A stretch of 38,365 nt of DNA from a virus. The position numbers and the translations under genes are program-made. The stretch lies in the UHGV virus genome UHGV-0208091; one strand, given 5' to 3'. Below the pieces are notes generated by a model, which saw only the letters and a list, made by a program, of their open reading frames with translations, was not told the origin of the DNA and did not search any database. Numbering within the stretch: position 1 is the first letter of the stretch; each line of letters starts with the position of its first letter. Shown one piece after another: positions 1 through 38,365 of this stretch.

Positions 1-270
1 ATGTCATTTACCCTCACGCAAAATTTGAAGTCGTTTCGTACCATCCCATACCTTAATCTCGTTGAGCCGCTTAGTGCCGCGCCTGTAGCTGTGACATATA
101 CCGCAAAAGGGGTCGACAGTATCAACGGGACTACTGCAACGGTGCTGTTTGATACGCAGGCTGAGGGGCTGGAGGCTACAGGCCAGTTCTACTACTCTTT
201 CGAATTTACTGACCTTGCAACAATTTTTGAGGATGCAGAAACGGCACTAAAAAAAGAGATTTCAGAGTAA
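1..270 (+). CDS. hypothetical 89-aa protein inside the invertible segment, translationally coupled to the tailspike (orientation-1 companion gene)
   Basis: ATG at pos 1 sits 6 nt after AGGAG at 38355-38359 (window end) and directly after tailspike stop 38362-38364; open to 270; followed by terminator hairpin. Confidence 0.5.
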   Translation: MSFTLTQNLKSFRTIPYLNLVEPLSAAPVAVTYTAKGVDSINGTTATVLFDTQAEGLEATGQFYYSFEFTDLATIFEDAETALKKEISE

Positions 271-276: not shown

Positions 277-303
277 CCGCCAGTGTTAAGCTGGCGGATT
301 TTT
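277..303 (+). terminator. rho-independent terminator after ORF 1-270
   Basis: stem CCGCCAG / CTGGCGG with 7-nt loop followed by ATTTTTA. Confidence 0.55.
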
Positions 304-340: not shown

Positions 341-487
341 TTAGCACTTATGTAATCTGAACGCCAGGAGAATCGAAGTAATCAAAACTACAATCCATGC
401 TTCGGAAGCAAAAACCTGATGCATTACAGTGCCCCAACTAAATATTACGTATGGATAGATAAAATTACCCCACTTCCAGGTAACCAT
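341..487 (-). CDS. small hydrophobic ORF (48 aa, two hydrophobic stretches) downstream of the silent tailspike cassette
   Basis: ATG preceded by GAGGTGAAAA RBS on minus strand; not in the >=60-aa ORF track; would be co-transcribed with cassette 2 after inversion. Confidence 0.25.
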   Translation of the reverse strand: MVTWKWGNFIYPYVIFSWGTVMHQVFASEAWIVVLITSILLAFRLHKC

Positions 488-571: not shown

Positions 572-2236
572 TCAATCGATAGCTTCGATTTCAATGGATA
601 CAGGATACTCGTCATTAATAACGTTTGGTTGTGTGCCATCCAGATGAATATCGAATCCCTGCTTATTTGTTTCGCTAAATGTATTATCAGGAAGATTTCC
701 AGCATTAGTAATAAATACTGGCTCGAAGTTTTTATTTTTAGCAGTTGAGGTACTGGTTGCTAACCCTCCGCTTATAGTGGTTGTTGTCGTTACAGCTGGA
801 ACTGAGTCGGTGCGTGTAGTAATGCCAGCGTTCGCTCCGTTTGGAATATTTACGATATATTGCTGCTGAGAGGTGCTTGATAAATCACACCGGGTAGTAA
901 CTTTATATCTGTGCCATGGCGGCATTCCAACGACAGAGATAACTGAGTTCTGCCCTTTAAATAAAGTCCCCGTTAGTTTGCACTTCATTCCAGGCACGCT
1001 GATTATGCTTTCAGCCGGAAGAGTCGGGTGTGGGGTTGCCACACCGGCAACTGCCTCCGCAATGGCTAACCATGGACGGATTGTTAGCTGTGTAACCCCA
1101 GCAGTCAGGCCTAAACCTGCATTATGTTTATAGTTTTTGCAGTTTAGTTTTACATACCCAGTCAATCCAGCCTTTCTTACAAGGCGGCATGGTTGAGAGC
1201 TTGATGTAATTGGGTTTGCGGCAAAACCGTCATACCGGAAATCAGCAGATCCATCAACGCGCGCTTTATCAGCTGCATAAAGTGCCGTGCTGTTACCGCC
1301 GACCTCCCACCATCCCATCATGTCGATATCGCAGTTATACAGATTATCTGCGCGTGAGCCGTCACCGACATAGATGCCATATGACGCCGCAGTGATTCCG
1401 TGCTGGAAGCCAAAGTTGGAAATGCTGGCGCCATAAAACGAAAGCGTTTGATCGTCAGTAGATGCAGGGTTTGAGTGGAACCAGATCCCACGCTGTGACG
1501 TCCTGACGACGACATTATCTACCCTGATAACTTCAGTCCATCCTTTGTCGTTGTATACATCTATTGCTGTTCCAGTAGTGTAATCTCGAATTACGGAGTC
1601 AAATACTGAACCGCCATAAAAATCTGAGAACCTGACAAACGCAGTAGCAAGGGCGTTCCCAACTGCGGTGAAATTTTTAAGAATTACCGCATTAAACAGA
1701 CTCTGCGCCTGCGCAGTACGCTTAAACGTCAGGGCGACGTTTGCGCCGGTATGGGTAATTACTGGAATGTTGCCCTTCGTTCCCATTCCTGGGCCTTCAA
1801 TGATAAGCCCGTTTGTTGAGTTAATGAACTCCAGCCCACCAACTAACGTATACCCGGCAGGCCCCAGTGACGGGGTTGAGAAGTAACCAATGGAGTTCTT
1901 AATGCAATAGTTAATTGCACTGGTCCAGATGTCGTCAAGAGCAGCACCATCATAAAGACCGAACTCTGTCGCGCAGACTTTGCCGGGGTTTTTTGGGATG
2001 CGTTGCCAGTAGTACTCAGATTGACCTGTCGGCACGCATATATAACCACCATCATCCTCAGCTGAGCCTCGCCTTGAAATAAATTCTCCGCCACCAACGG
2101 GACCGTGAGACATTGCGGCCCAACCGACAGGATGGGCGCGCAATAAAATACTTTGACCTTCATATGAAGGAACAACAGAGCGCAGAGCAGTAAATGATGA
2201 TACCTGCCCCACCAAAGCAAAGCCTTCGCCTGAACC
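572..2236 (-). CDS. promoterless alternative tailspike C-terminal domain cassette (right-handed beta-helix / pectate-lyase-like, depolymerase-like), 554 codons; reading frame continues through the crossover site with no ATG
   Basis: 547-aa ORF (track start is TTG) stays open upstream through 2225-2250 to a stop at 2264-2266; peptide across site NLGSGEGFALVG matches junction motif NLGSGEEGVG of tailspike 36259-38364; beta-helix-like G/N/T-rich repeats. Confidence 0.7.
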   Translation of the reverse strand, partial: GSGEGFALVGQVSSFTALRSVVPSYEGQSILLRAHPVGWAAMSHGPVGGGEFISRRGSAEDDGGYICVPTGQSEYYWQRIPKNPGKVCATEFGLYDGAALDDIWTSAINYCIKNSIGYFSTPSLGPAGYTLVGGLEFINSTNGLIIEGPGMGTKGNIPVITHTGANVALTFKRTAQAQSLFNAVILKNFTAVGNALATAFVRFSDFYGGSVFDSVIRDYTTGTAIDVYNDKGWTEVIRVDNVVVRTSQRGIWFHSNPASTDDQTLSFYGASISNFGFQHGITAASYGIYVGDGSRADNLYNCDIDMMGWWEVGGNSTALYAADKARVDGSADFRYDGFAANPITSSSQPCRLVRKAGLTGYVKLNCKNYKHNAGLGLTAGVTQLTIRPWLAIAEAVAGVATPHPTLPAESIISVPGMKCKLTGTLFKGQNSVISVVGMPPWHRYKVTTRCDLSSTSQQQYIVNIPNGANAGITTRTDSVPAVTTTTTISGGLATSTSTAKNKNFEPVFITNAGNLPDNTFSETNKQGFDIHLDGTQPNVINDEYPVSIEIEAID

Positions 2237-2250
2237 CAGGTTTACGCGAA
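2225..2250. other. gix/hix-like recombination crossover site (right), TTCGCCTGAACC-CA-GGTTTACGCGAA
   Basis: 26-bp imperfect palindrome matching Hin/Gin/Cin site architecture (TTC..AACC-NN-GGTT..AA); lies 44 bp upstream of invertase gene; reverse complement is 24/26 identical to 36668-36693. Confidence 0.8.
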
Positions 2251-2293
2251 CAATATCGGCAATTTACAATCTGCCTTTTCAAAGGGTTGCATA

Positions 2294-2872: not shown

Positions 2873-3035
2873 TGGGAAGTCAGTGAAATCCGCCAAATAT
2901 TGCAAACAACGCATGTTGATCACTACATCCAGCCATTGAAAATGGCGCTCCTGGACGATATTTGTCGATTTTTAAAACTAACTCATCACCGTGGTGATAT
3001 GACGAGGGTGACTCACTACCTTGTTGATATATAAG

Positions 3036-4354: not shown

Positions 4355-4594
4355 TCACCAAATTGGTTGCTTTTGTGCTGCAATCCACGCATCAACCGCT
4401 TTGCGGTTATACATGCATTCGCTGGTGGGCTTTGGATCACCCTCTGGGGAAACGTGCTTATACTCCCTACCCAGCAGCCAGGACTTTTTGCGGGCGCGGG
4501 TAATTGTACCGCGCTTCATGCCAGTCACTGCGATCAGCAGGTCCTCAGATACCCACTCGTTCGGCTCAAGTTGAATGATTGTCTGCATACCCAC
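4355..4594 (-). CDS. xis: excisionase-like small DNA-binding protein
   Basis: 79 aa, basic, immediately upstream of int in same orientation; winged-helix-like excisionase family features; functional call by position. Confidence 0.5.
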   Translation of the reverse strand: MGMQTIIQLEPNEWVSEDLLIAVTGMKRGTITRARKKSWLLGREYKHVSPEGDPKPTSECMYNRKAVDAWIAAQKQPIW

Positions 4595-9621: not shown

Positions 9622-9622
9622 C

Positions 9623-9742
9623 ATGTCACAACAGTCAACCGCTATGCCTGATCCGCGCTACTTCCTGAAGTTGCTGCCACGCAGCATCAGGTATGACCCA
9701 ATAAGCGGGATTTTTTACCTCATTGCGAAGCGGGCAGAGTAA
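9623..9742 (+). CDS. small ORF (39 aa) immediately after cro
   Basis: ATG 5 nt after GAGGTG; below ORF-track size cutoff. Confidence 0.3.
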   Translation: MSQQSTAMPDPRYFLKLLPRSIRYDPISGIFYLIAKRAE

Positions 9743-9745
9743 GCA

Positions 9746-17828: not shown

Positions 17829-17868
17829 GCATTACAGAAGCTCCTGAGCTAAGGGGCTTCGATAATGC
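17829..17868 (+). repeat. conserved-flank hairpin element copy A: GCATTA-CAG-[GAAGC..14 nt..GCTTC]-GA-TAATGC
   Basis: outer stem GCATTA/TAATGC, 2x2 internal loop, inner 5-bp stem; begins 1 nt after TAG. Confidence 0.6.
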
Positions 17869-18161: not shown

Positions 18162-18201
18162 GCATTACAGGAGCCATTCTGCCGAGTGGCTTCGATAAGC
18201 T
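18162..18201 (+). repeat. hairpin element copy B (slightly degenerate outer stem): GCATTA-CAG-[GAGCC..12 nt..GGCTTC]-GA-TAAGCT
   Basis: shares GCATTACAG and GGCTTCGATAA with copy A; inner stem sequence differs but pairing preserved. Confidence 0.5.
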
Positions 18202-18526: not shown

Positions 18527-18868
18527 GTGAACAAAGAGCCCCGTATCTACGGCAGCAAGTGGGACCGAGAGCGTCTTATCTTCCTACGTGCGCACCCCTT
18601 GTGCGTCATGTGCCAGGAGCAAGGCAGGGTGACAGCGGCAACGGTGGTTGACCACATCATCCCGCACAAACTGAAAGAGGCTCTGCGCTCTGGTGACAGC
18701 CAGGAAATAGCGAAGGCGCAAAAGCTTTTCTGGAGCCGGAAGAACTGGCAAGGGCTGTGCAAGCAGCACCACGACTCAACGAAGCAGCGAATGGAGAAGC
18801 TTGGCACCGTCATCGGTTGTGATGAGAGCGGAATGCCCCTGGATCCTAACTCACATTGGTTTAAATGA
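18527..18868 (+). CDS. HNH endonuclease (terminase-associated, HK97-type packaging)
   Basis: 113 aa; CxxC...HH...C..HH HNH motifs; GTG start after AAGGAG; directly upstream of cos-like region and TerS. Confidence 0.8.
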   Translation: MNKEPRIYGSKWDRERLIFLRAHPLCVMCQEQGRVTAATVVDHIIPHKLKEALRSGDSQEIAKAQKLFWSRKNWQGLCKQHHDSTKQRMEKLGTVIGCDESGMPLDPNSHWFK

Positions 18869-19050: not shown

Positions 19051-19515
19051 ATGGCAGGACGACGCCCGAAACCGACCCACCTCAAAGTGGTTACCGGCAA
19101 CCCGGGCAAACGCAAACTTAACGACAAAGAACCATCGCCAGCGCGAGAAATACCAAGCCCTCCAGAGCACCTCACTGACTGGGGAAAGGTGGCGTGGGGG
19201 AAACTGACCGTGCTGCTGGATGGCATGGGCATTTTAACCATTGCCGATACGCTGGCGCTCGAACGACTCTGCGATATTTACGCCGACATTCTGCAGCTTC
19301 GCCTGACTATTGCTGACGAGGGGCGAACTTACACCGTGAAGACAGAGGGCGGGTTTTTGATTAAGGCTAACCCGGCAGTAGCAATGTTGGCGGATGCAGA
19401 TCGACGTTTTAAAAGTTACCTGGTTGAATTCGGTCTGACTCCGGCCGCCAGAACGAAGGTGAAAGTGGATGGTGGAGAAAAAGAAGAAGACCCGCTCAAC
19501 CAGTTCTTCGGTTGA
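19051..19515 (+). CDS. terminase small subunit, P27 family
   Basis: 154 aa; MAGRRPKPTHLKVVTGNPGKR N-terminus characteristic of P27-family TerS. Confidence 0.8.
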   Translation: MAGRRPKPTHLKVVTGNPGKRKLNDKEPSPAREIPSPPEHLTDWGKVAWGKLTVLLDGMGILTIADTLALERLCDIYADILQLRLTIADEGRTYTVKTEGGFLIKANPAVAMLADADRRFKSYLVEFGLTPAARTKVKVDGGEKEEDPLNQFFG

Positions 19516-21211
19516 TCCCGCCACGCAATATGCGCGGGATGTAGACTCCGGCAAAGAAATCGCCGGTCCTGATATTAGAAACTCCTGTAAACGACATCTC
19601 AGGGATTTGGAGTCCTGTCATGCTCGCGGGTTGGTATGGGATGTTGCAGCGGCGCAGCGTGCCATCGACTTTTTTGCAAAAGTACTGAAGCTCAACGGTG
19701 GTGAGCATGAGGGAAAACCCTTCAACCTGCTACCGTGGCAGTGCTTTATTGTAGGGTCGATATTCGGCTGGAAGAACTCGGATGGTTATCGTAGATTTCG
19801 CATGGTGTACGTTGAATCTGGTAAGGGTTCCGGCAAATCACCACTGGCTGGCGGAGTGGGGCTTTACTGTCTAACAGCAGATAAGGAGCCTCGTGCCGAG
19901 ATATATGCAGCAGCAACGAAAAAAGACCAGGCCATGATCCTTTTTCGTGATGCTGTCGCGATGGTGGAGCAGTCCCCTGCGTTAGCACAGCGAATAAATA
20001 AATCAGGCGGTGCCGGGAAAGAGTGGAACCTTGCGTTTCTTCAGACAGGCTCATTTTTCCGGCCTATCAGTTCGGATGATGGGCAGTCAGGGCCACGCCC
20101 ACACTGTGCACTGATTGACGAAATTCACGAGCACAAAAACAACCAGGTTGTGGAAATGATGCGCGCCGGGACGAAAGGTCGTCGCCAGGCGTTGATTTTC
20201 ATGATCACTAACAGCGGCCACGACAAAACCAGCGTCTGCTACGACTATCACGAGTATGGGCGTAAAGTTGCCGAAGGCTCGATTGAGGATGACAGTTTCT
20301 TTTCTTTCATTTGCTCCCTGGACGAAGGAGAAGACCCATTCAAGGACGAGTCCTGCTGGAAAAAAGCAAACCCCTCTCTTGGTCATACTTTTACCGATCG
20401 CTACCTGCGTGAGCAGGTTACTCAGGCTCGGGGGATGCCGTCGAAGGAAAGCATTGTTCGGCGGTTAAACTTCTGTCAGTGGGTGGATGCCGATAACCCA
20501 TGGATGAGTAGCGATGTGTGGATGGGGTGCGAAGAGGACTTTGACCTGCAGGAGCTGCAGGGAGAAGAATGTTATGGCGGCCTGGACCTTTCAGGAACTC
20601 GCGACCTTACGTCTCTGGCGCTCTTTTTCCCTAAAAAAAGAAAGCTGCTGGTGGAGTTCTGGACACCAAAAGATACTTTGCTGGATAGAGCGAAAACAGA
20701 CCGCGTACCTTACGACGCATGGGAACGGGGAGGCTATATTCATACCACTCCCGGAAAGGCGGTGAAATATGGCTTTGTTGCTGAGCGCATTGCTGATCTT
20801 TCCATGTTGTTCGATATCAAGGCGATCGCCTTCGACCAGTACCGCATAAAATATCTTGAGCCGGAATTAGAGAGCGCTTCTGTATCAGTACCGCTGATAC
20901 CTCACGGGCAGGGATACTACAAGGCGCAGGATTCCGGACTGTGGATGCCTCATTCCATCGAACTTTTTGAACAGATGCTCGATGATGGCGTAATCATTAT
21001 TAAAACAAACCCCTGCCTCCGATGGAACGCTGCTTCCGCCGTAACCGAAGCCGACCAAAAAGAAAACCGCATATTCGCCAAGAAAAAGAGTACTGGTCGA
21101 ATAGATGGTGTGGTTGCGTCGGCGATGGCAATTGGTGCTGCAGAAGGTTATGAGCCTGATGATGGCGATATAGAGGGCTTTTTTGACGATCCGATCATAG
21201 TGGGTATCTGA
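19469..21211 (+). CDS. terminase large subunit
   Basis: 580 aa; ATPase and nuclease domains; overlaps TerS end; followed by portal. Confidence 0.85.
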   Translation: MVEKKKKTRSTSSSVDPATQYARDVDSGKEIAGPDIRNSCKRHLRDLESCHARGLVWDVAAAQRAIDFFAKVLKLNGGEHEGKPFNLLPWQCFIVGSIFGWKNSDGYRRFRMVYVESGKGSGKSPLAGGVGLYCLTADKEPRAEIYAAATKKDQAMILFRDAVAMVEQSPALAQRINKSGGAGKEWNLAFLQTGSFFRPISSDDGQSGPRPHCALIDEIHEHKNNQVVEMMRAGTKGRRQALIFMITNSGHDKTSVCYDYHEYGRKVAEGSIEDDSFFSFICSLDEGEDPFKDESCWKKANPSLGHTFTDRYLREQVTQARGMPSKESIVRRLNFCQWVDADNPWMSSDVWMGCEEDFDLQELQGEECYGGLDLSGTRDLTSLALFFPKKRKLLVEFWTPKDTLLDRAKTDRVPYDAWERGGYIHTTPGKAVKYGFVAERIADLSMLFDIKAIAFDQYRIKYLEPELESASVSVPLIPHGQGYYKAQDSGLWMPHSIELFEQMLDDGVIIIKTNPCLRWNAASAVTEADQKENRIFAKKKSTGRIDGVVASAMAIGAAEGYEPDDGDIEGFFDDPIIVGI

Positions 21212-22518
21212 TGGCTAAGAATAAACAGCAACCAGGGCGCGTTAAGAGCGCTCTTTTAAACTGGCTTGGTGTTCCCATAAGCCTGACGACCGGTGAATTC
21301 TGGCGGGAGTGGTACGGAACCAGCAGTAGCGGAAAAGTGGTTACCGCTGACAAAGTTATCCGGCTTTCTGCTGTCTGGGCGTGCGTAAGACTCTTAAGTG
21401 AGTCAGTTTCCACGCTTCCGCTTAAAATTTACGAGCGGCAGGCTGATGGATCGCGAAAGCTGGCCCAGAACAATCCCGCCTACCAGATATTATGCAGGCG
21501 TCCTAACCCGGAAATGACCCCTTCCCGTTTCATGTTGATGATTGTGGCCAGTATTTGCCTGCGTGGTAATGCATTTGTCGAGAAGCTATATATCGGCAGC
21601 AAATTGGTTTCGCTGGTGCCGTTACTTCCGCAGAAAATGGTTGTAAAGCGACTCGATAGCGGGAAGTTACAGTATACATACACGGAAAATAGCGTTAAGC
21701 GGATCATTCCAGTAGACCGGATGATGCATATCCGCGGATTTGGTCTTGATGGTGTGTGCGGGATGATGCCGACAATGGCCGGGGTTGACGTTTTCGGCGC
21801 TGCTATGTCGGTTGATGAAGCCGCGGCAAAAATCTTCGAAAATGGCCTGCAAAGTACCGGTTTCCTGTCGTCAAAAACGGCGCTTAATAAGGAACAGCGA
21901 GAAAGATTGCGTCAAAACCTTCAGTCTTTTATTGGTTCTAAAAACGCCGGGAAACTGATGGTTCTGGAAAATGAACTGACTTACCAGAATGTCACTATGA
22001 ACCCGGAGGCCGCGCAACTCCTTGAAAGCCGTTCATTCAGTATTGAGGAAATTTGTCGCTGGTTTCGCGTACCGCCATTTATGGTCGGCCATACGACAAA
22101 ACAATCCAGCTGGGCTTCGAGTCTTGAAGGGATGAACATGCTGTTCCTGACTCATACCCTGCGTCCTCTCCTGGTCAATATTGAGCAGGAAATATCGCGT
22201 TGTCTTCTGAACAGTGATGAGGACTTGTTTGCTGAGTTCTCCGTTGAAGGGCTTCTGCGCGCCGATAGCGCTGGTCGTGCTGCTTACTATACCAGCGCAC
22301 TGCAGAATGGCTGGATGTCTCGCAATGACGTTCGCCGTCTTGAGAACATGCCGCCGATAGAAGGGGGCGATATTTACACCGTTCAGCTCAACCTGACGCA
22401 ACTGAAAAATCTCGAAAGCAGCAACCCTGCCGTTCAGGCGCTGGCTTTGCGAGAGCTGCATAACCATGTATTCCCCGACATTTCCTTTGAACAATCTCCG
22501 CTGAAACAGGCCGCTTAG
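21211..22518 (+). CDS. portal protein, HK97 family
   Basis: 435 aa; canonical position and conserved portal core. Confidence 0.85.
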   Translation: MAKNKQQPGRVKSALLNWLGVPISLTTGEFWREWYGTSSSGKVVTADKVIRLSAVWACVRLLSESVSTLPLKIYERQADGSRKLAQNNPAYQILCRRPNPEMTPSRFMLMIVASICLRGNAFVEKLYIGSKLVSLVPLLPQKMVVKRLDSGKLQYTYTENSVKRIIPVDRMMHIRGFGLDGVCGMMPTMAGVDVFGAAMSVDEAAAKIFENGLQSTGFLSSKTALNKEQRERLRQNLQSFIGSKNAGKLMVLENELTYQNVTMNPEAAQLLESRSFSIEEICRWFRVPPFMVGHTTKQSSWASSLEGMNMLFLTHTLRPLLVNIEQEISRCLLNSDEDLFAEFSVEGLLRADSAGRAAYYTSALQNGWMSRNDVRRLENMPPIEGGDIYTVQLNLTQLKNLESSNPAVQALALRELHNHVFPDISFEQSPLKQAA

Positions 22519-24649: not shown

Positions 24650-24856
24650 ATGAAACTTATCGCGGTGAAACCAATTTATTTTGGTGGGGTAGTGGTGACG
24701 GAAGGCGAGTCACTTGAGACGCTGGAACAGCATGGCCGTGAGTTGGTTCAAAAAGGTTATGCACGGCTGGTAGATGTTGATAATTCTGCGCAGCCGGAAC
24801 AGCCGGAACAGCCGGAACAGCCGGAAACTGTGCCAGAGAAGAAGGCTAAAAAATAA
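24650..24856 (+). CDS. hypothetical head-associated protein (68 aa) with PEQPEQPEQPE C-terminal repeat
   Basis: ORF between capsid and connector genes. Confidence 0.5.
   Translation: MKLIAVKPIYFGGVVVTEGESLETLEQHGRELVQKGYARLVDVDNSAQPEQPEQPEQPETVPEKKAKK
24791..24826. repeat. tandem repeat (CAGCCGGAA)x4
   Basis: four exact 9-bp units inside ORF 24650-24856. Confidence 0.9.
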
Positions 24857-28350: not shown

Positions 28351-31300
28351 ATGGCAACCCTTCGCGAATTAATTATAAAAGTTTCAGCTAATTCTCAGTC
28401 CTTTCAGACCGAGATCGCTCGCGCATCTCGCATGGGGTCCGATTATTATAAGACAATGCAACGGGGTGGGCGGCAGGCGGCTGTTTCCGCACGCGAGACA
28501 AGACAGGCGCTAGCCGAAGTATCTGCACAATTATCAGAAACTAAAAGTGCAGCTATGGGTATGGCTGGTGCGTTTGCCGGAGTTTTTGCGACCGGGCACC
28601 TTATCGCTCTTGCTGATGAATGGAGTTCTGTGAATGCACGTCTAAAACAGGCGTCAACATCAACCGATGATTTCTCCAATTCCCAACGATTACTTATGGA
28701 TATCAGCCAGAAAACAGGGACAGCGTTCAGTGATAACGCAGGTTTATTTTCTCGTTCGGCAGCATCCATGCGTGAGTTTGGCTATTCCTCTGGCGATGTA
28801 CTGAAAGTCACCGAGGCTATCAGCACGGGCCTTAAATTATCCGGGGCCAGCACGTCAGAGGCCAGTGCAGTTATCACACAGTTCAGCCAGGCGCTGGCGC
28901 AGGGGGTATTGCGCGGGGAGGAGTTCAACTCTGTTAACGAAAACGGTGATCGGATCATCCGTGCCTTAGCGGCAGGTATGGGCGTTGCCCGCAAAGACCT
29001 CAAGGCGATGGCTGATAACGGACTGTTGACAATAGATAAAGTGGTTCCGGCTATTACCGCTCAGTTACGGGTGATGCAGGCTGAATTTGATGCAATGCCA
29101 AAAACAGTATCAGCCTCGACTCAAAAGGTTGAAAACGCCTTTATGGCCTGGGTGGGCGGTACAAATGATGCATACGGTGCCTCCGCTGTGCTTGCTGGTG
29201 GTCTTGATTCACTGGCTGAGAACATTGATACCGTAGCAATGGCTGCAGGAGCGTTAACGGCTGTGGGCGTGACCCGGTTTCTGGGAAACTGGACGCTTCA
29301 ACTGAAATCACACACCGAAGAGCTAATTAGGGCCAGAGGGGCGGAAATTTCCAGCACTGCGGCTAAAATCGAAGGAGCAAACGCCTCACTTGTTCAGATT
29401 GAAACGGAAAAATCGTTACTTCTGTCTAATCAGCGCTCACTAGTGGCTCAACTTGAACTGGCGCAGACGGAAAAACAACGCGCATCCATCAGGACACTGC
29501 TTGCAAGAAACTCAATGGAGATGGTCAAAGCGAATAAAGCGGAAACCGCCACGGTCAATGAGCTGTCAATAGCAAATCAGCGGCTTAATGCGCTCACCTC
29601 TGTAACGAGAACCGCATGGGCTGGCGTATCATCCCTCTTTGGTGGCATTCCAGGGATTTTGATGCTGGGTGCAGGTGCCTGGTATACATGGTATCAGAAC
29701 CAGGAACAGGCGCGTCAGTCTGCGATACAGTATGCCTCCACCCTTGATGAGGTGGTGGAAAAGGCGAAAGCCATGAGCGAAATTCAAATCAGAGGCTCTA
29801 TTGCTGATTCTGGTGACTCCATTGACGCGCTCAAAGATAAGCTGGAAGACTTGAGGGATGCTCAAGCCGAGGCCGCTGCTGAAGTTCAGAAATATACGTC
29901 TCTCGCTCGACAGATGGGCGTTCAGAATGATCAAAATAATGGTTACGTACAGAACGCTGCTAAATATCAGAGGGAATATAATAAAATATCCCGAGATATT
30001 GCTGATACTACATCTCAATTAAACAATGCTGTAGATGCGCAAAATAAGTTACAAACTGAGTTAGCCTCAAAAGTTCAGGCATCGGCAGTCGCTTTTGACA
30101 AAATAAAAAGTTCGATAATTGGTGCGCTGAATGTTAATGAAGCAATGGCAACATCGCTGTCAGTTACCATTCAATTCATGGACGAATTAAAAAAGCGTTC
30201 TGGGAACGGCCAGCCCCCAGCACCCCAAACCAATACAGCTTACGATAATTTTATAAAGCAACAGAAGGAGAGCATAGCCCTCTCTCAGAAAGAAGGTGTA
30301 GAGCGGGCCAAGCTTAAAGCTCTTCAAGATGCCATCAAACAGGGAGCGGTTAGAACTGATAATAAAGGTAATATTTTACCTGGGCAGGATGAGCAGATCG
30401 CAGCTATTCAAGGTAATGCTGCTACAGACTTTAAACTTAACGAATCGCAAAAAAAACCTCGCGGAAAGTCAGAGGTAGAAAAAAATGAAGATGCATATAC
30501 CCGTATTGTTAAACAACAAGAAGAACAGATTGCACTCGCCGGACAAAGCAATGAACTGGCAAAAATAAAATATCAGATAGTTCAGGGGGAGTTAGCCTCA
30601 CTCGATCGAGCTAAAAAAGAAACTATTCTGCATAATGCTGCGCTTATCGATCAGAAAAACATTGCTGAACAGTTAAAAACGTTCCGTGATGGGCTGGCTG
30701 ATAGTAATGCTGCTGCGCGTGACAGGGGGAATATTGATTTTCTTGGTGCCGGGATGGGGGGAAAGGCCCGCGACCGCATGAAGGAAATGGCAGATATTCG
30801 CACTGATTTTCTCAAACAGCAGCGGGACCTGCAGCGGGATTTCAGTCGAGGGGAAATTTCTGAGGACCTGTACAAACAGCAAACGGAAGCACTGCAGGCT
30901 GCACTTGCTGAACGGCTGGCGATTCAGGAGGACTACTACAAAAAGACCGATGAACAGCAGTCAGACTGGCGCGCTGGGATCAGCGATTCCCTGATGAACT
31001 ATGCCGATCAGGCTTCTGAACTGAGTTCAATGGCTGCCACTGCAACCAGCGAGATTCTGGATGCCACCACAAACTCTATCTCCAACAACCTGACAAACGT
31101 CCTGACAGGCGCTGCTTCTTTTAAAGATGGGATGTCAAATATTTTCTCTTCCCTGGGCGAAACGGTGATTAAGACGCTGATCCAGATGGCAACACAGGCG
31201 TTGATCACTAAAGCGATTATGGCGTCATTTGGCGGCGGAGCGGGTGGGTTGTTCGGTAGTCTTTTTGGCGGTGCCAGCGGTGCGGCAAGTAGTGGTACCG

Positions 31301-31761
31301 CTATTCAAAGCGCGGGAGCTAATTTTTCATTTAACGCTCTCGGAGGCGTTTACGATTCTCCGTCACTTTCTGCCTACAGCAATGGTGTTTACAGCACTCC
31401 CCAATATTTTGCGTTTGCGAAAGGTGCGGGTGTATTCGGCGAGGCCGGGCCGGAAGCCATCATGCCGCTTACCCGTGGTGCTGATGGTTCGCTGGGGGTC
31501 AAAGCTGTTGGGCGGGAATCGCCGGCGGTACAGAACGCTGCGAGGCAGCAGCAGGAAAGACAACTTCTTTCAACTGGTGACATCAACGTCAATTACCACC
31601 TCACTGGTAAACCGGATGATGTGATGATGCAGACATTGGATGCCCACGGCCGCCGCCTGGCTAAACAGATAAAATCTGAACTGACGAGCGACGTAAACAA
31701 TCCTCAAAATGCCTTCGGTAGAGCTCTTTACTCCAACCTTCAGCCCAAAAAACCACGATAA
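28351..31761 (+). CDS. tail tape measure protein
   Basis: 1136 aa, coiled-coil rich with Gly-rich C-terminal region. Confidence 0.9.
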   Translation: MATLRELIIKVSANSQSFQTEIARASRMGSDYYKTMQRGGRQAAVSARETRQALAEVSAQLSETKSAAMGMAGAFAGVFATGHLIALADEWSSVNARLKQASTSTDDFSNSQRLLMDISQKTGTAFSDNAGLFSRSAASMREFGYSSGDVLKVTEAISTGLKLSGASTSEASAVITQFSQALAQGVLRGEEFNSVNENGDRIIRALAAGMGVARKDLKAMADNGLLTIDKVVPAITAQLRVMQAEFDAMPKTVSASTQKVENAFMAWVGGTNDAYGASAVLAGGLDSLAENIDTVAMAAGALTAVGVTRFLGNWTLQLKSHTEELIRARGAEISSTAAKIEGANASLVQIETEKSLLLSNQRSLVAQLELAQTEKQRASIRTLLARNSMEMVKANKAETATVNELSIANQRLNALTSVTRTAWAGVSSLFGGIPGILMLGAGAWYTWYQNQEQARQSAIQYASTLDEVVEKAKAMSEIQIRGSIADSGDSIDALKDKLEDLRDAQAEAAAEVQKYTSLARQMGVQNDQNNGYVQNAAKYQREYNKISRDIADTTSQLNNAVDAQNKLQTELASKVQASAVAFDKIKSSIIGALNVNEAMATSLSVTIQFMDELKKRSGNGQPPAPQTNTAYDNFIKQQKESIALSQKEGVERAKLKALQDAIKQGAVRTDNKGNILPGQDEQIAAIQGNAATDFKLNESQKKPRGKSEVEKNEDAYTRIVKQQEEQIALAGQSNELAKIKYQIVQGELASLDRAKKETILHNAALIDQKNIAEQLKTFRDGLADSNAAARDRGNIDFLGAGMGGKARDRMKEMADIRTDFLKQQRDLQRDFSRGEISEDLYKQQTEALQAALAERLAIQEDYYKKTDEQQSDWRAGISDSLMNYADQASELSSMAATATSEILDATTNSISNNLTNVLTGAASFKDGMSNIFSSLGETVIKTLIQMATQALITKAIMASFGGGAGGLFGSLFGGASGAASSGTAIQSAGANFSFNALGGVYDSPSLSAYSNGVYSTPQYFAFAKGAGVFGEAGPEAIMPLTRGADGSLGVKAVGRESPAVQNAARQQQERQLLSTGDINVNYHLTGKPDDVMMQTLDAHGRRLAKQIKSELTSDVNNPQNAFGRALYSNLQPKKPR

Positions 31762-31781
31762 CCTGCCCGGAGGGAATATTC

Positions 31782-32255
31782 ATGGCAGATATTTTCTACC
31801 CGGACGAATACCTGCCCATGCCGCTTATGGACGGGTACGGGTTTAAGCCCATATCACCTTTACTGCGAACGGAGATGACGTCCGGTCGCGCTCAACAACG
31901 AAGGCGATATACCTCAACACCCACCCAGGCATCAGTTAAATGGATTTTTAAAACTGATGCTCTGGCGCAGGTGTTTGAGGCGTTTTTCAGGGATGCGCTT
32001 AAAGATGGCCAGTCCTGGTTCTATCTGAAACTCCAGACTCCAGTCGGGGTAAAGCCTTATAAAGCCAGGTTCGTGGATATTTACGAAGGGCCGACGCTGG
32101 TCGCGCCAAAATACTGGCAGTACAGCGCAACGCTGGAATTATGGGAGCGCCCGTTACCGCCTTCAGGCTGGGGAAATTACCCGGAATGGCTGGCGGGCCA
32201 GTCGTTACTGGATATTGCGCTAAACAGAGAGTGGCCTGAGCATGACAATTCTTGA
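31782..32255 (+). CDS. minor tail protein
   Basis: 157 aa; position after TMP. Confidence 0.55.
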   Translation: MADIFYPDEYLPMPLMDGYGFKPISPLLRTEMTSGRAQQRRRYTSTPTQASVKWIFKTDALAQVFEAFFRDALKDGQSWFYLKLQTPVGVKPYKARFVDIYEGPTLVAPKYWQYSATLELWERPLPPSGWGNYPEWLAGQSLLDIALNREWPEHDNS

Positions 32256-32727
32256 GCAACTTTATGCAAGCAGCGGCTCTGAAGTCATTCACGACACGCT
32301 GCAGATCACGGCAGGTGATCAGAACTACTGGCTTACCCGCGGGTGGGACAATATTACTGCCTCGTTAGAAGACGGGCAGCAGGTAACGTTTGAAGGGTGT
32401 GCTATCGATATAGCATTGCCTGCCAGGAATGCCGACGGAACGCAAGATCTGAAATTTTCCATCAGTAACATCGATGGTGTCGTATCCGATACGATTGACA
32501 GAATTCTGGACGAAATGAAATCGGCAACACTGACTTTTCGGCGGTATATCTCCTCTGATTTATCTGCACCTGCGGCATCGCCTTACACCCTTGATGTGAA
32601 ATCCGGATCGTGGACGGCAACTGCGGTGCAGGTAACTGCCGGATATATGAACATCCTTAAAACGGCCTGGCCGCGTAATCGTTATAACCTGGCTGAACAT
32701 CCCGGTCTTCGTTATATGTCTTCCTGA
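32242..32727 (+). CDS. minor tail protein
   Basis: 161 aa; position. Confidence 0.55.
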   Translation: MTILEQLYASSGSEVIHDTLQITAGDQNYWLTRGWDNITASLEDGQQVTFEGCAIDIALPARNADGTQDLKFSISNIDGVVSDTIDRILDEMKSATLTFRRYISSDLSAPAASPYTLDVKSGSWTATAVQVTAGYMNILKTAWPRNRYNLAEHPGLRYMSS

Positions 32728-32736
32728 GGTATTCAC

Positions 32737-33117
32737 ATGTTCCATTCTGATAAATACCTTTCGGTCAAATGGCTGAAGGGCGGGCGCGTTTATCCTGAGC
32801 TCGACTGTTTCGGCATTATCAATGAAATCCGCGGCGATCTCCTTCTCCCGTTATGGCCGGATTTTTCCGGCGTGACGAAAGATGAGGGAGGGCTCGATCG
32901 TGAGGCCAGGAAGTTTATGAAATCCCTCACACGCTGTGAGCCTTGTATCGGGGCCGGGGTTGCTTGTTATTCAGGATCAACCGTGACGCATGTTGGTATC
33001 GTTGTTTTGCTGGATGGCCAGTTGCAGGTTGCCGAATGTAATCCGGGAACCAATGTCACCTTTCTACCTCTTCCGCGATTTGTCCGTCGGTTTAACCGTG
33101 TGGAGTTCTGGCAATGA
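32737..33117 (+). CDS. tail assembly protein, possible NlpC/P60-like (lambda K-like) domain
   Basis: 126 aa with conserved Cys and His (CFGII...HVGIVV). Confidence 0.4.
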   Translation: MFHSDKYLSVKWLKGGRVYPELDCFGIINEIRGDLLLPLWPDFSGVTKDEGGLDREARKFMKSLTRCEPCIGAGVACYSGSTVTHVGIVVLLDGQLQVAECNPGTNVTFLPLPRFVRRFNRVEFWQ

Positions 33118-36100
33118 CGATAAGAATCTACCCTTCCCGGCTCCCCGGAGAACCGCTTGAAACTCATGAGCACGGCAATATTACGCTGCATCAATGGATG
33201 GTCAGAAATGTTCCTGGGTACAGCCAGGACAGATCGCACCCAGTTGCCGTTGAATTAAATGGCCGCACACTTCCTCCCGATGAGTGGCCGCTTTGCCAGT
33301 TGAGCCCTGACAGTGATGTCAGAATTTATCCTGTTCCCTACGGAACGGGGCTGGAAATTGCTGTCTGGGTTTCTGTTGCGATATCAGCTGCCAGCGCAGC
33401 CTACTCGTTGTTCTTCGGGCCGAAAGTCGATCTCGGTGGTTATTCATCGGGGAGTGGTCGCTCACTTGAGCTTAATCCAGCAAAAGCTAACACGGCAAAA
33501 CTGGGTGACCCGATACGTGAGGTGTTTGGTCGATGCCGCATCTATCCTGATTATCTGGTGCAGCCGGTTACCCGTTTTGACCCCGATGATCCAACGCGAA
33601 TGACGGTCGAAATGTTTCTTTGTGTCGGGCAGGGGAGATTTTCGTTTACGGGAGGAGATAAACGGATTGGAGAAACCCCGGCAGCCTCGCTGGGTGATGG
33701 TTTCAGCGATAAGGTGTACCAGCCAGGAGAAGACGTATCTTCTGATCCGCGAAGTGAAAACTGGTTCAACTCGACAGAAGTCGGCGGAACATCAAGCGGA
33801 ACAGGGCTGGATATGGCCCAGACCTCACCTGATTCCGACGATATTATCGCTGACAGCATGACGGTTTCTGGTGCATCCGTAACCTTTACAGGCCTTGATA
33901 CGGATGATGGTGACGATGACGACGAGGACGATAATTCTCTCCCGGACAGCTGGATAACGGGGGCCATAGTTGAAATTAAGGCGCCGACAAATTATCTGAT
34001 CTCCACCTCTTCTGGTTACAGTGTTTTTGCCAGCTCATTGCTTACCGAACTTGCTCCCGTAGCGGGTATGCCGGTGACGCTGAGTTTCAACAGTGTTGAT
34101 TATGACCTCGTCATTGCGTCCTATACCCCGGGTCAGGATGCTGTGCCTGGCGAGGGTGGCAGTGCAGCAAAAATTCAGGCCAGTGCGGCTCCCGTCACCT
34201 ACGATTTTTCGAACAGCTCCAGTACGTTCATGATCACATGGCAGGGCACCACCTATACGGTGTCGCTGGTAGCGAACTACATCTCGATGTCGGGACTGCT
34301 GGCGGCTATCACCGAGGGGCTCACTGGCTCCGGCCTGGTCGCACGGGACAACGGCGGTACCGTACTGATAACCGAGGCGGCCAGTCCGTTCGTTGGTGGG
34401 GCAATCACATCCTCCTCGCTGCCTGCAGCCGTTTTCGGTGATGCCCCGGTTTACACCTCCGGCACGGCATCAACCGGCGGCAGCCCGGCGGTAACGGCAA
34501 ACGTGACGCTTGCGTATAACAGCACTACGGGAACCGCATTCTCGGGCATGCCTGAAGGTGTGCAACGGCTTTCACTGGCTCACCGCGGGAATGAGTACCA
34601 GATCGTCTCTGCCGACGGCACAACGGCAACAGTGGTGCGCCTGGTTAATGGGTCCGTTGATGAGTCGTGGCCGGGATTCACCGCCAGGACGATGATCGAC
34701 TATGAGGCCACTGGTCTTAACGACACGCTGAGCTGGCTGGGGCCGTTCCTGGTTTGCCCTGAAAATGAGACCGTGGATATGTTCGAGGTGAATTTCTCTT
34801 TCCCGAACGGTATCTGCGGCTTTGACAGTAAGGGGAAAAAACGCATTCGCCATGTTGAGTGGGAGATTCAGTATCGCGTCTACGGTTCCGGATCGGGATG
34901 GGTGAGTCACCAGGGCGAGTACGCGCTGAAAAACATCAACGGGTTAGGTTTCACTGAGCGGATCACCCTCAGTTCTCCGGGGCTGGTGGAAGTTCGCTGT
35001 CGTCGACGCAATGAGCAGGGCAGTAATAACTCGCGCGACAATATGTACTGGCAGGCTTTGAGAGGGAGGCTTCTGGCAAGACCGGTATCCTACTCAGGTG
35101 TAACAACCTGGGCAATTACCGTTGAAACCGGAGGGAAGCTGGCGGCACAGTCTGACAGGCGCGTCAGCGTGGTCGCTACCCGTGAATATGAGGGGGGAGG
35201 TAACAGAACTATAAGCGGCGCATTCCGTCATGTGGCAAATAGTCTTGGATTTAATGCTAATCAGCTCGACACCTCTGCAATAAATGCTCTTGAAACTGCC
35301 TGGTGGACGCCGAGGGGAGAATATTTTGACTATGAGGCAAGCAGCGACAGTGCTTCAGCGAAAGATATTTTCGACAAAATCACCGAAGCAGGCATGAGCT
35401 ATTTTTTGCTATCAGATGGGCTCTTATCTGCCGGGCGCGAAGGTATCAAAACCTGGACCGGGATCATCACTCCCCAGGATACGGTAGAGGAAATGCAGAC
35501 ATCATTCAGGGCCCCTTCTGATGATGATTATGATGGTGTTGACGTCACATATATTAATCCGGTTACCTGGGCGGAGGAAATCGTTCAGTGTCGGACAGCT
35601 GATAATCCTGTGCCACGCAAAGTGGAGTCGTACTCGCTGGGCATTGTAATGACTGCAGATCGTGCTTACCGGATAGGTATGCGCAGGCTCATGAAATATC
35701 TGCACCAGCGCAGGACCTATGAATGCACAACTGAGCTTCTTGGCTGGTGCTATCAGTTTGGCGATCACATCATTCTTTCTGATGATATTCCGACGGGTAA
35801 AACAATCAGCTGTCTGATAGAAGGCGTGACATTCGATGATGAAGTTATCACGTTAACAGTCACTGAGCTTCTTGACTGGAGCTATGCTAATCCGCGCTGC
35901 TGGATTCAGTTTCAGGGGGGGCGGCCGTCGACTCGTTTGCTAACGCCGACACGTGTCGATGACTTCACCCTTACTATACCGTACAACGACGACCTGCACC
36001 CGGAAGACTGGATTATGGATGATCCGGATGTTGAATTACCTCGCCTGTTGTTTTGTGACAGTGAGAAGGGGGCGCGGCACGGTATCGTTCAGGAAATTGT

Positions 36101-36197
36101 CCCGTCTGATGACTGTACTTGCCAGGTCACAGCCCCGGAATATAAAGAAATCTTTTACGCATACGACGACGCTACATACCCTGGCGACGTAGCTTAG
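33114..36197 (+). CDS. tail tip / host specificity protein (lambda J-like, possibly I-J fusion)
   Basis: 1027 aa; N-terminal hydrophobic segment, acidic run DTDDGDDDDEDD; position. Confidence 0.7.
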   Translation: MTIRIYPSRLPGEPLETHEHGNITLHQWMVRNVPGYSQDRSHPVAVELNGRTLPPDEWPLCQLSPDSDVRIYPVPYGTGLEIAVWVSVAISAASAAYSLFFGPKVDLGGYSSGSGRSLELNPAKANTAKLGDPIREVFGRCRIYPDYLVQPVTRFDPDDPTRMTVEMFLCVGQGRFSFTGGDKRIGETPAASLGDGFSDKVYQPGEDVSSDPRSENWFNSTEVGGTSSGTGLDMAQTSPDSDDIIADSMTVSGASVTFTGLDTDDGDDDDEDDNSLPDSWITGAIVEIKAPTNYLISTSSGYSVFASSLLTELAPVAGMPVTLSFNSVDYDLVIASYTPGQDAVPGEGGSAAKIQASAAPVTYDFSNSSSTFMITWQGTTYTVSLVANYISMSGLLAAITEGLTGSGLVARDNGGTVLITEAASPFVGGAITSSSLPAAVFGDAPVYTSGTASTGGSPAVTANVTLAYNSTTGTAFSGMPEGVQRLSLAHRGNEYQIVSADGTTATVVRLVNGSVDESWPGFTARTMIDYEATGLNDTLSWLGPFLVCPENETVDMFEVNFSFPNGICGFDSKGKKRIRHVEWEIQYRVYGSGSGWVSHQGEYALKNINGLGFTERITLSSPGLVEVRCRRRNEQGSNNSRDNMYWQALRGRLLARPVSYSGVTTWAITVETGGKLAAQSDRRVSVVATREYEGGGNRTISGAFRHVANSLGFNANQLDTSAINALETAWWTPRGEYFDYEASSDSASAKDIFDKITEAGMSYFLLSDGLLSAGREGIKTWTGIITPQDTVEEMQTSFRAPSDDDYDGVDVTYINPVTWAEEIVQCRTADNPVPRKVESYSLGIVMTADRAYRIGMRRLMKYLHQRRTYECTTELLGWCYQFGDHIILSDDIPTGKTISCLIEGVTFDDEVITLTVTELLDWSYANPRCWIQFQGGRPSTRLLTPTRVDDFTLTIPYNDDLHPEDWIMDDPDVELPRLLFCDSEKGARHGIVQEIVPSDDCTCQVTAPEYKEIFYAYDDATYPGDVA

Positions 36198-36218
36198 CAA
36201 TTTCAAAAAAATCAATTC

Positions 36219-36246
36219 ACCCGCTTCGGCGGGTTTTTTCATTTTT
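36219..36246 (+). terminator. rho-independent terminator after J-like gene
   Basis: ACCCGC-TTCG-GCGGGT then TTTTTCATTTTT. Confidence 0.6.
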
Positions 36247-36258
36247 GGAGCACAATGT

Positions 36259-38364
36259 ATGGCCAACATCGAAAAACTTGGCTCGTCATCACCAGAGGTA
36301 TTGCTTAAGAATGCAACTAACCTCGATAAGTTAGTCAATGGCCGGGAATCGGAATCATTACCTGATCGCTTTGGTGTACTGCGCAAAACCTGGCACGGCA
36401 TGGAGATGATCTTCAACCGTTTTATAGACTACATCACTGGTCGCGGCGAGCAGGCAGTTGCAGCTATCGGCTGGCAGGAGCTTGGCAACTGGGCTGTTGG
36501 TCTGGCTGTAGATAATCGCCAGCAGATCGTCTACTACAATGGCTCCTGGTACAAATACCTTGGTGAGCTTGAACACGTCATTGCCGGAGATTCTCCTGAG
36601 AACGATGGCGGTGTGTGGTCGGCTGCAAACCCCACAGGGAAATGGTCGAACATCGGTGACGCGGCTCTTCGCTCAAACCTGGGTTCAGGCGAAGAGGGGG
36701 TGGGGGATGCGTTACTTGCTGTCAAACAACCATACACAGGGGCTGTAGCCAGGACTCAGCACGACAAAAACTGGGACAGTATTAACCTTCTGGATTTTGT
36801 ATACGCCACGGACGTTGTAGATGGTTTTGTTGATTATGGTCTTGGGCTTAACCGCGCCATTGCCGCTATGAGTTCTTTAGGTTCAACCAGCGTAGAGCAT
36901 ATTCCCAGACGCAGAATCAATCTCCCCGCAGGTCTGCTGCACATCAAAACGAAAGTCGAACTTTCTTTTGGCCCCTTCGCAATGTGCGGCGAGGGGATAT
37001 TCCAGACCATCTTTGCTATACATCCCAGCGCAGCTTCAGATGATGATTATCTGTTTGACTTCAGCTCAGCCGGCTGGGATTCAACAGGAAGGGTCAGAAT
37101 ATCCGAACTTTATCTGAGTAACTTCTCAGTGCTTGGGGAAACTGCGAGCTGGATTCGTAAAAGAATCTTTAAATTCTACGGCGTCGGCTGGGATTTTGCG
37201 ATAGAGAACGTGCAGGTCTGGTCGCCTCCACTTTCGTCATTCGATATGACGGATGTCATGGACGGGGTATTTAATCAGGTGAGGATAAACTCCGGAGGCC
37301 GGTTCCTCACTGCAGGTTCAGAAGTAACGCATCAGATTAACATGCTGAATCAGTATGATAACTGTAATGCAATAAGATACATGAGCTGCCATTTTGAAAA
37401 CAACTATTCAGGCGTCTCTTATATTCGTGGTGGGTCAAACAACATTCTCTTTGGCGGAATGTGTAAATTTGAAAATAACAGCAGAAACAACCTTGTTCCT
37501 GTTAACCAGATTTACGGGTCCACCTCAGATAGTGTCAAATTTGAAAATATCTTCGTAAGCCACCCGGCCCATATCACAGTTTACTGGCTGGACAGCAATG
37601 GCCGCCACGTATCAATTCGCGGAGGCTCACTTATGAGCCCGTCGGATTTAGGTGGATATACCGGTCTGAGGTGGTTCCGCATCCACCGTACAAACTGGGC
37701 GAGTGCGACTGCGTGCGTTCAGCTGGTCGCTGATATTGACATGATGCATGTGGACGGGTACGGATATAACGGGGCGAATCAGCTCTCACCGTTTGATTTT
37801 GAGGGCGAGGTTATTTTCCGGGCAAAGGCTATTCGCCTGGCGCGACCAAATACCTTCATGTACATCAACTGGAACTGCAAAATTGATATTGAAAATCTGA
37901 CGCTGTTAGGTGCTGTTACCAGCGATTATCAGACCTCACTGTTTAATGTTGCCGCGTCATCAGTAAAGGCAGACGTAAACGTTGATAAATATAACGGCAG
38001 CGTTGTTGGAACTGTTTATGTCAATCCAGCAATGACCACCGCATCGCGCCGGCAGTCAATAATCAATGTGAGGGGTAAATCACTTCAGTCTTCATCACTG
38101 ACGCTCTCTGAGGGTACAGACCCTCTTGGTTATGATGAGTCCTGGACGTGGAATGCCTCGGGAAATGTAGCCAACATCGGATACTGCCATACAGGGAAGC
38201 GAATGGTTGTCAGATGTGCAGACACATCAAATTGCCTGATTGTCGGCGGTAATATTTTCCTTCCGGGTGGTGCGGTAACGGCTGCATGTACGATAACCCT
38301 GATGGCGATGAACACATCGTTCCGTCAGGGCTGGGTCGAAGTTTCACGGGTAGCAGGAGTCTAA
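36259..38364 (+). CDS. tailspike: N-terminal anchor (aa 1-141) + C-terminal right-handed beta-helix enzymatic domain (orientation 1 of invertible segment)
   Basis: 701 aa; beta-helix-like Asn/Gly-rich repeats; contains crossover site at codons 137-145. Confidence 0.8.
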   Translation: MANIEKLGSSSPEVLLKNATNLDKLVNGRESESLPDRFGVLRKTWHGMEMIFNRFIDYITGRGEQAVAAIGWQELGNWAVGLAVDNRQQIVYYNGSWYKYLGELEHVIAGDSPENDGGVWSAANPTGKWSNIGDAALRSNLGSGEEGVGDALLAVKQPYTGAVARTQHDKNWDSINLLDFVYATDVVDGFVDYGLGLNRAIAAMSSLGSTSVEHIPRRRINLPAGLLHIKTKVELSFGPFAMCGEGIFQTIFAIHPSAASDDDYLFDFSSAGWDSTGRVRISELYLSNFSVLGETASWIRKRIFKFYGVGWDFAIENVQVWSPPLSSFDMTDVMDGVFNQVRINSGGRFLTAGSEVTHQINMLNQYDNCNAIRYMSCHFENNYSGVSYIRGGSNNILFGGMCKFENNSRNNLVPVNQIYGSTSDSVKFENIFVSHPAHITVYWLDSNGRHVSIRGGSLMSPSDLGGYTGLRWFRIHRTNWASATACVQLVADIDMMHVDGYGYNGANQLSPFDFEGEVIFRAKAIRLARPNTFMYINWNCKIDIENLTLLGAVTSDYQTSLFNVAASSVKADVNVDKYNGSVVGTVYVNPAMTTASRRQSIINVRGKSLQSSSLTLSEGTDPLGYDESWTWNASGNVANIGYCHTGKRMVVRCADTSNCLIVGGNIFLPGGAVTAACTITLMAMNTSFRQGWVEVSRVAGV
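36668..36693. other. gix/hix-like crossover site (left), TTCGCTCAAACC-TG-GGTTCAGGCGAA, inverted relative to 2225-2250
   Basis: 24/26 identical to reverse complement of 2225-2250, identical central dinucleotide, in identical codon phase. Confidence 0.8.
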
Positions 38365-38365
38365 A

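Follow-up and report, generated by a model that had tools for sequence, protein, structure and literature searches.

The virus genome UHGV-0208091, a DNA stretch of 38,365 nucleotides (nt) which was analysed over its full length and is called the window below, most likely (we put the probability at about 93%) represents the whole genome of a temperate Klebsiella siphovirus of approximately 38.4 kb, whose circular map was opened inside a 3.9-kb Gin-type invertible segment that carries two alternative ends of the tailspike gene. The phage is lambdoid with a packaging module of the HK97 type. The cut that made its map linear falls on the start codon of a small open reading frame (ORF), an arbitrary place, and the tailspike region is split only as an artefact of this cut.

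A first-pass annotation of the sequence had proposed that the window ends are contiguous. This was borne out by public sequences, since position 38365 abuts position 1 with neither gap nor overlap in 13 independent contigs. The signals on which the proposal was built are in place. A TAA at 38362-38364 closes the tailspike ORF of 701 amino acids (aa; 36259-38364) and leaves a single base before the window end, the ATG at 1-3 opens an ORF of 89 codons (orf89), and an AGGAG (38355-38359) lies six bases ahead of this ATG if 38365 joins 1, a spacing as suitable as had been claimed. An exact 42-nt pattern across the junction was present in five IMG/VR contigs, in which BLAST alignments pass from base 1 into base 38365 at neighbouring positions. 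The first 40 bases of the window were, within IMG/VR, confined to these same five longer contigs. Metagenome contigs fetched by an interior pattern, which belong to relatives of the window phage, crossed the junction in five of six cases. A lookup of the exact 701-aa tailspike returned three contigs, in each of which the 89-aa ORF starts two bases past the tailspike gene, and a lookup of the exact 183-aa DNA invertase returned ten chromosomal or scaffold loci, with all seven mapped loci crossing the junction. Contig L099 was 100% identical to window positions 34868-38365 (3,498 nt) and then to positions 1-344 (344 nt), while L098 showed 99.97% identity over 12,107 nt running on into window 1-2832. 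The arrangement is also known from unrelated lytic phages of Klebsiella, among them Carvaje, KpV17Sklif and Menlow, in which tailspike end and small ORF are contiguous (85-92% nt identity). The curated annotation of Menlow has the same layout comprising ribosome-binding site (RBS), stop codon, one base, ATG, a 270-nt coding sequence and a terminator. INPHARED and PLSDB contained mosaic relatives only. The junction and interior patterns had no match in the GTDB representative genomes, nor had the junction sequence in 5,426 complete E. coli genomes. A terminal overlap was not found between the window ends, so their closure is exact and not due to a direct terminal repeat.

The lack of an overlap would also agree with a window cut from the interior of a longer linear contig, for instance from an integrated prophage with host flanks, so that its ends are not joined in the source. 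Such an origin is highly improbable. Integrated copies open at the phage attachment site attP (2990-2997), with the integrase gene at one end and the invertase gene at the other, whereas the attP site of the window is intact and internal. In addition, none of the ORFs scanned matched a non-phage family and no host DNA was detected in the window, the ends fit base for base in the 13 contigs, one of them 100% identical, and two unrelated cuts would hardly fall by chance one base past a stop codon and exactly on the next ATG. The attP site had already been suspected between the invertase and integrase genes, and its core was now mapped there by means of integrated relatives. In chromosomal loci, the invertase side (attR) matches window 2224-2997 at 100%, followed by host genes for a LysR-type regulator, a cold-shock protein, a pseudouridine synthase and a type VI secretion system cluster. 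On the integrase side (attL), proviruses match the window down to approximately position 2990 and continue with the 3′ part of a LysR substrate-binding domain. The target of integration is the LysR-type regulator gene, from which a 233-aa product with a phage-supplied end remains, about 69 codons of the original 3′ part being located at the other junction. An attachment site within a tRNA gene was considered and rejected, since no tRNA was found in the window or in the first five loci and the site falls in the LysR-type gene. Likewise, the flank of locus L001 was uninformative as attR; its DNA behind the invertase gene holds umuDC-like genes and an insertion sequence (IS). The integrase is the terminal provirus gene in nearly all of 80 IMG/VR loci and adjoins host genes in chromosomes. 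It is widespread, and the chromosomes found by integrase lookup differ from those with an identical tail module. Around the attP core, the minus strand carries three copies of the decamer CCATGCCCCA (2855-2864, 2866-2875 and 3062-3071; 0.08 expected), which are candidate arm-type Int sites. Because the attP arms are joined in the window, whereas integrated relatives are opened between invertase and integrase, the window corresponds to the excised form of the phage.

Pfam and PHROG searches revealed the modules of a complete temperate phage, namely int, xis, repressor, cro, helicase, primase, Q, holin, endolysin and HNH genes, as well as the genes for small and large terminase, portal, protease, capsid, connectors, tail tube, tape measure, TipJ and tailspike. 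The TipJ-like protein is the last constant tail gene product ahead of the tailspike. The gene order closes into a lambda-like circle, as had been suggested before, and the same map was found in KPP5665-2 and pKPTCM2-4 (see below). Together with the intact attP site, the full set of modules supports the earlier opinion that the window is probably an entire phage genome of 38,365 bp. Relatives also appear in PLSDB as non-mobilizable K. pneumoniae 'plasmids' of 37-42 kb (NZ_LR890473, NZ_CP076549, NZ_CP095237, NZ_AP024758, NZ_CP118695 and others). These records are probably excised or replicating phage genomes.

It is possible, with a chance somewhat below even, that the ends are contiguous only on paper and that the window goes back to virion DNA packaged by cos, to a concatemer or to a tandem prophage, the assembly of which was rotated or trimmed, and does not represent a circular replicon that is stable. 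In that case the true ends of the linear DNA would be at a cohesive-end site (cos) close to the HNH and small-terminase genes (~18.5-19.1 kb). Packaging by cos is suggested by the genes for an HNH endonuclease (18527-18868), a P27-type small terminase (19051-19515) and an HK97-type large terminase (19469-21211). An integrase and attP are present and no plasmid maintenance genes were detected among the ORFs scanned. Moreover, the start of the window exactly on an ATG, one of about 60 gene starts in 38 kb, suggests deliberate rotation. On the other hand, K. pneumoniae assemblies have yielded relatives of 37-42 kb that are registered as circular, and packaging by cos would leave contiguity and completeness untouched, only the word 'replicon' being at stake. 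Neither of the natural linear forms, one opened at attP and the other presumably at a cos site near 19 kb, interrupts the invertible segment. The features of this segment and of the adjoining regions are compiled in Table 1.

Table 1. Invertible tailspike segment of the window and neighbouring features (positions on the window; a point denotes no assigned strand)
Feature	Position	Strand	Basis or remark
Left crossover site	36668..36693	+	TTCGCTCAAACC TG GGTTCAGGCGAA; intragenic, encodes LRSNLGSGE stretch
Right crossover site	2225..2250	-	TTCGCGTAAACC TG GGTTCAGGCGAA, minus-strand reading
Serine DNA invertase, Gin/Hin type, 183 aa	2294..2845	+	Pfam, PHROG and PDB matches
Tailspike gene, A-on form, 701 aa	36259..38364	+	ORF; PHROG tail fibre and tail spike families
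Constant N-terminal anchor, 145 aa	36259..36693	+	Common to both tailspike forms
Variable cassette A, expressed tailspike C-terminus	36694..38364	+	Homology to near relatives ends at the site
RBS (AGGAG) of the ORF at window position 1	38355..38359	+	Sequence; same layout in Menlow
orf89, 89 aa, travels with cassette A	1..270	+	Full-length phrog_7836, E 4.6e-31
Terminator-like hairpin between the cassettes	277..297	.	Scored on both strands; Menlow terminator at the same place
orf48, 48 aa, travels with cassette B	341..487	-	Gene call, 94-100% conserved in relatives
Variable cassette B, silent tailspike C-terminus	572..2224	-	Without own start codon in frame with the site
Sigma-70-like promoter, putative	2241..2270	+	Consensus match only; overlaps right site, upstream of invertase gene
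attP core, CGTGGTGA at minimum	2990..2997	.	attL/attR junctions of integrated relatives
Tyrosine integrase, 417 aa	3046..4299	-	Pfam Arm-DNA-bind_2 and Phage_integrase
Excisionase (DUF1233)	4355..4594	-	
TipJ-like central tail fibre/host-specificity protein	33114..36197	+	Pfam FNIII-A_GpJ and Phage-tail_3; phrog_469

The segment is delimited by the longest inverted repeat of the window, whose arms (2224-2250 and 36668-36694) are complementary at 25 of 27 positions. Each arm harbors a 26-bp site composed of two imperfect inverted half-sites of 12 bp around the 2-bp core TG. The site pattern TTCGCNNAAACCTGGGTTCAGGCGAA occurs exactly twice in the window, with 0 occurrences expected, and none of 100 shuffled sequences contained a match even if three mismatches were allowed. 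Compared to the gix sites of phage Mu, 17 of the 26 positions are identical and the AAACC-NN-GGTT core is retained. On the linear window the two arms are 34,417 nt apart, while on the joined ends the segment is 3,948 bp long with both sites included in full and 3,920 bp long between the core dinucleotides. These measurements agree with the argument of the first-pass annotation that the sites bound a sensible segment of 3.9 kb only if 38365 joins 1 and would otherwise enclose 34 kb. On a circle it makes no difference whether the 3.9-kb or the 34-kb arc is inverted. Inverted site pairs with the same outer span of 3,948 bp are present in relatives, with the exception of CP055451.1 (L097), in which an IS with a DDE_Tnp_1 transposase (12452-13647) resides between the cassettes at a position equivalent to window ~341-344. 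The segment of L097 is otherwise near-identical, and the IS stretches the distance from site to site to approximately 5.1 kb. The match of the short contig L099 to the window stops at base 344, the same point at which the IS of L097 is inserted. Three separate IMG/VR viral contigs of genome 2609459977 (L002, L004 and L005) all contain cassette A and orf89; within the stretch covered by L004 and L005, cassette B and the invertase gene were not seen, and L004 retains one crossover site.

The start codon of the invertase gene lies 44 bp beyond the right site, just outside the segment. Its product was assigned to the Pfam family Resolvase (E 2e-50) with an additional HTH_7 domain and to the DNA invertases of phrog_125. 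Residues 1-181 match the Mu Gin structures 4m6f and 3uj3 (E 1e-71), Ser9 being in register with Gin (the 3uj3 chain has Ala at this position). The promoter-like match that overlaps the right site is suggestive only.

To assess the consequences of an inversion, the segment was flipped in silico. The first 145 codons of the tailspike gene were thereby fused in frame to the minus-strand ORF 572-2224, resulting in a product of 695 aa which shares its 145 N-terminal residues with the 701-aa tailspike. The anchor matches phrog_9823, a known tail-fibre family, at positions 2-138 and cassette B matches it at positions 140-724 (E 3e-237), so that the flipped product represents this family in full length. 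In the present orientation cassette B is silent, because stop codons occur on the minus strand just upstream of the site. Both cassettes look like receptor-binding or depolymerase modules of tailspikes, although the evidence from sequence comparison is limited. The 701-aa protein, which is present in identical form in three public contigs, showed a weak sequence match to the Sf6 tailspike, and cassette B a weak match to the K2 depolymerases 7LZJ and 7VYV. The PDB matches cover only N-terminal parts of the K2 depolymerases and of the Sf6 tailspike. A PHROG family of exopolysaccharide (EPS) depolymerases was hit by residues 4-159 of cassette B only (E 7e-18), and PF27114 (Phage_tail_beta) is given in a precomputed listing for B-type products of relatives. 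DepoCatalog does not mention the cassette A homologues of Menlow and Carvaje, for which it was searched. The short orf89 directly follows the tailspike gene in every relative.

The homology of cassette A to lytic phages is not restricted to the tail spike genes of Carvaje, KpV17Sklif and Menlow. Cassette A, orf89 and the terminator together (36694-38365 plus 1-300) are 85-92% identical at the nt level to the tailspike unit of these virulent Klebsiella phages, which belong to other families (Menlow to the Ackermannviridae). Judged by nucleotide identity, this common unit suggests that temperate and virulent phages have exchanged receptor-binding cassettes.

Both orientations of the segment occur in nature. 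In L105 and L106, two complete or near-complete K. pneumoniae chromosomes, the segment is reversed compared to the window, while its flanks are 100.000% identical to window 30659-36694 (6,036 nt), which includes the anchor DNA, and to window 2224-2997 (774 nt). Cassette B is found in its expressed form in L100, L105 and L106, where fusion genes of 695 aa have been called. Their products are identical to the predicted one at 671 of 695 positions (96.5%). Among 21 informative contigs, cassette A was joined to the anchor in 12 and cassette B in nine, and an identical 183-aa invertase adjoins both orientations. The outer half-sites differ (CTC vs CGT) and remain with their respective flanks in both states, as expected for an exchange at the core.

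From these data, the following course of events can be envisaged. The Gin-type invertase (2294-2845) would act on the two inverted 26-bp sites, the left of which lies after tailspike codon 145, and the segment would flip at low frequency in lysogens or during phage growth. Late transcription of the tail operon would then read cassette A together with orf89 or, after inversion, cassette B together with orf48. The cassette that is not expressed has neither a start codon nor a promoter of its own, and the hairpin at 277-297 may stop read-through into the antisense cassette. It is presumably the invertase of the window itself that catalyses the flip, possibly in a Fis-dependent manner. Similarly, enzymatic activity and specificity are presumed for both tailspikes.

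Some observations weigh against this reading. A direct repeat or overlap of the window ends, which an assembler would leave as a signature of circularity, is missing. The physical circularity of the source molecule is an assumption. Both orientations were seen by comparison of genomes and not within one population. A scan of the 5′ part of the invertase gene for degenerate Fis motifs, and a nt comparison with Mu gin, did not reveal a clear pair of sites. Finally, a Pfam-A scan assigned no family to either tailspike cassette, and a depolymerase activity of the proteins would be deduced from PHROG names, weak PDB matches and annotations of homologues. It could be argued from the comparison between genomes and from the Fis scan that the inverted repeats are relics, that the segment no longer inverts and that the differences in orientation go back to ancient events or to homologous recombination. 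Furthermore, the identity between the window and most relatives drops from 100% in the flanks to about 94.5-96.6% in cassette B; recombination must therefore have rearranged the region as well. Loss of inversion is nevertheless quite unlikely. The two sites are intact and share one core, the invertase gene is an unbroken ORF whose Ser9 aligns with Gin, the identical invertase is located beside both orientations, and two lineages with different tails were each found in both states, for example L101 and L109 (see below). Moreover, 27 bp are very short for a RecA-dependent exchange.

The segment belongs to the invertible tail-protein switches of the Gin/Hin/Cin/Pin type by all defining traits examined other than the Fis-bound enhancer. 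The closest parallel is the G segment of Mu (NC_000929) with its genes S/U and S'/U', in which the order is the same: a constant 5′ part of a tail-fibre gene, an intragenic left site, a variable part with a small ORF, an inverted small ORF with its variable part, the right site and the invertase gene just outside. The likeness extends to the invertase, which matches Gin as described above, to the 26-bp sites and to the size of the segment (3.9 kb vs ~3.06 kb in Mu). By contrast, the core dinucleotide is TG instead of TC, and the carrier is a lambdoid siphovirus with integrase and attP and not a transposable myovirus. Also, a tailspike related to depolymerase-type spikes is switched in place of the slender fibre of Mu, and neither orf89 nor orf48 revealed similarity to the tail-fibre assembly proteins U and U' of Mu in the Pfam and PHROG scans.

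The mechanism of invertase switches itself is textbook knowledge from Mu and P1, and the switches of P1 (Cin), Pin, PinR and PinQ reside in a temperate phage or in lambdoid prophages. By common knowledge and two reports (PMC12529663; 10.1101/2022.07.24.501295), a serine invertase adjoins an invertible tail-fibre C-terminus in the P1 C segment (Cin) and in the E. coli prophages e14 (Pin), Rac (PinR) and Qin (PinQ). While these systems switch fibre genes of the stf/tfa type in E. coli, it is a tailspike that is switched in the window. The system is thus a switch of the Mu G/P1 C type acting on a depolymerase-type tailspike, and its kind is already well known.

Two relatives with the same map illustrate how the switch can vary. 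KPP5665-2 (MF695815) is a mitomycin-induced temperate Klebsiella siphovirus with a complete genome of 39,241 bp, which is 97.5% identical at the nt level to window 2263-7598 and contains further similar blocks. Its gene order (TipJ, tailspike, reverse-strand alternative, DNA invertase, int, xis) is that of the window and its invertase is 96.7% identical, but the cassettes differ. In KPP5665-2 (L006), the sites at 15756-15801 and 22226-22271 read TTCGCTCAAACC CT CGTTTGGGCGAA and are located upstream of the tailspike start codon, the inverted repeat (15756-15808/22218-22271) taking in the RBS and the ATG. Since the sites precede the start codon, KPP5665-2 swaps whole genes and not C-termini. The genome announcement of this phage does not mention a switch. 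The second relative, pKPTCM2-4 (NZ_CP118695), is the record of a K. pneumoniae 'plasmid' which encodes a TipJ protein with 98% aa identity and a 142-aa anchor with 98.6% identity. Like the window, it has sites within the gene, a recombinase, an integrase and two cassettes, both accompanied by a small ORF, but it differs in the cassettes and in the integrase module. As this record is circular and comprises 41,452 bp, relatives are recovered as circles of a size similar to that of the window. In the literature that was searched, a 2026 study on the capsular specificity of temperate Klebsiella phages (PMC13123978) does not refer to inversion, and a single report was found that mentions in passing an inversion of approximately 5 kb beside a DNA invertase gene in a K. 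pneumoniae prophage (bioRxiv 10.64898/2025.12.17.694638).

If the segment flips as outlined, a population of lysogens would release virions with two receptor specificities, probably directed to two types of capsule or polysaccharide. The presence of two tailspike ends per lysogen bears on the host range of prophages, on the genome-based prediction of capsule tropism and on depolymerase counts in prophages. With regard to annotation, the window should be rotated, e.g. to the small terminase gene or to attP, and the region 572-2224 should be described as a silent alternative tailspike end and not as a broken or hypothetical gene.

The A/B segment is not confined to phages with a siphovirus tail. 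Five loci (L101, L103, L104, L107 and L109, at approximately positions 5500-10700 of each) contain the segment together with the identical invertase and the same attR junction, but there it follows baseplate genes of a contractile tail (Sheath_initiator, Baseplate_J, Phage_Wedge1 and Caudo_TAP) and is joined to a different tailspike anchor of 167 aa. Two of these loci possess this same anchor with opposite orientations of the segment, cassette A being expressed in L101 (723 aa) and cassette B in L109 (721 aa). Window 2224-2997 was matched at 100%, with the same host attR end, behind either the siphovirus TipJ gene or the contractile-tail genes. As both kinds of tail genes precede the identical module, the switch is common to siphovirus-type and myovirus-type prophages at one chromosomal site, and each of the two lineages occurs in both orientations. 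It is conceivable, and in our opinion almost an even proposition, that the A/B segment, the invertase gene and the attP-proximal DNA constitute a portable host-range switch that moves among unrelated Klebsiella prophages. The 26-bp site and the conserved linker encoding LGSGE would in this case serve both as inversion site and as splice point for the exchange of modules. Silent cassettes deprived of start codon and promoter would then form a reservoir of tailspike specificities that is undercounted by gene-based surveys of Klebsiella prophages.

Besides the tailspike segment, some other elements were observed in the window. Two copies of a 37-nt element (17829-17865 and 18162-18198) are 76% identical and lie 333 nt apart in a gene-poor stretch that extends from the lysis genes to the HNH and terminase genes. 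An Rfam scan of the whole window, these elements included, gave no match; they could be related to packaging. A 9-nt unit (CAGCCGGAA) is repeated in four tandem copies at 24791-24826, within a 68-aa ORF of the DUF7210 family just past the major capsid gene. The partly palindromic 19-nt sequence TCAAGTTAAACTTGATAGT occurs in three copies (8446-8464, 8493-8511 and 9364-9382) which flank the S24/helix-turn-helix repressor gene (8573-9247). Because one of the copies is located between the repressor gene and the cro-like gene, it is likely that these sequences are operators.

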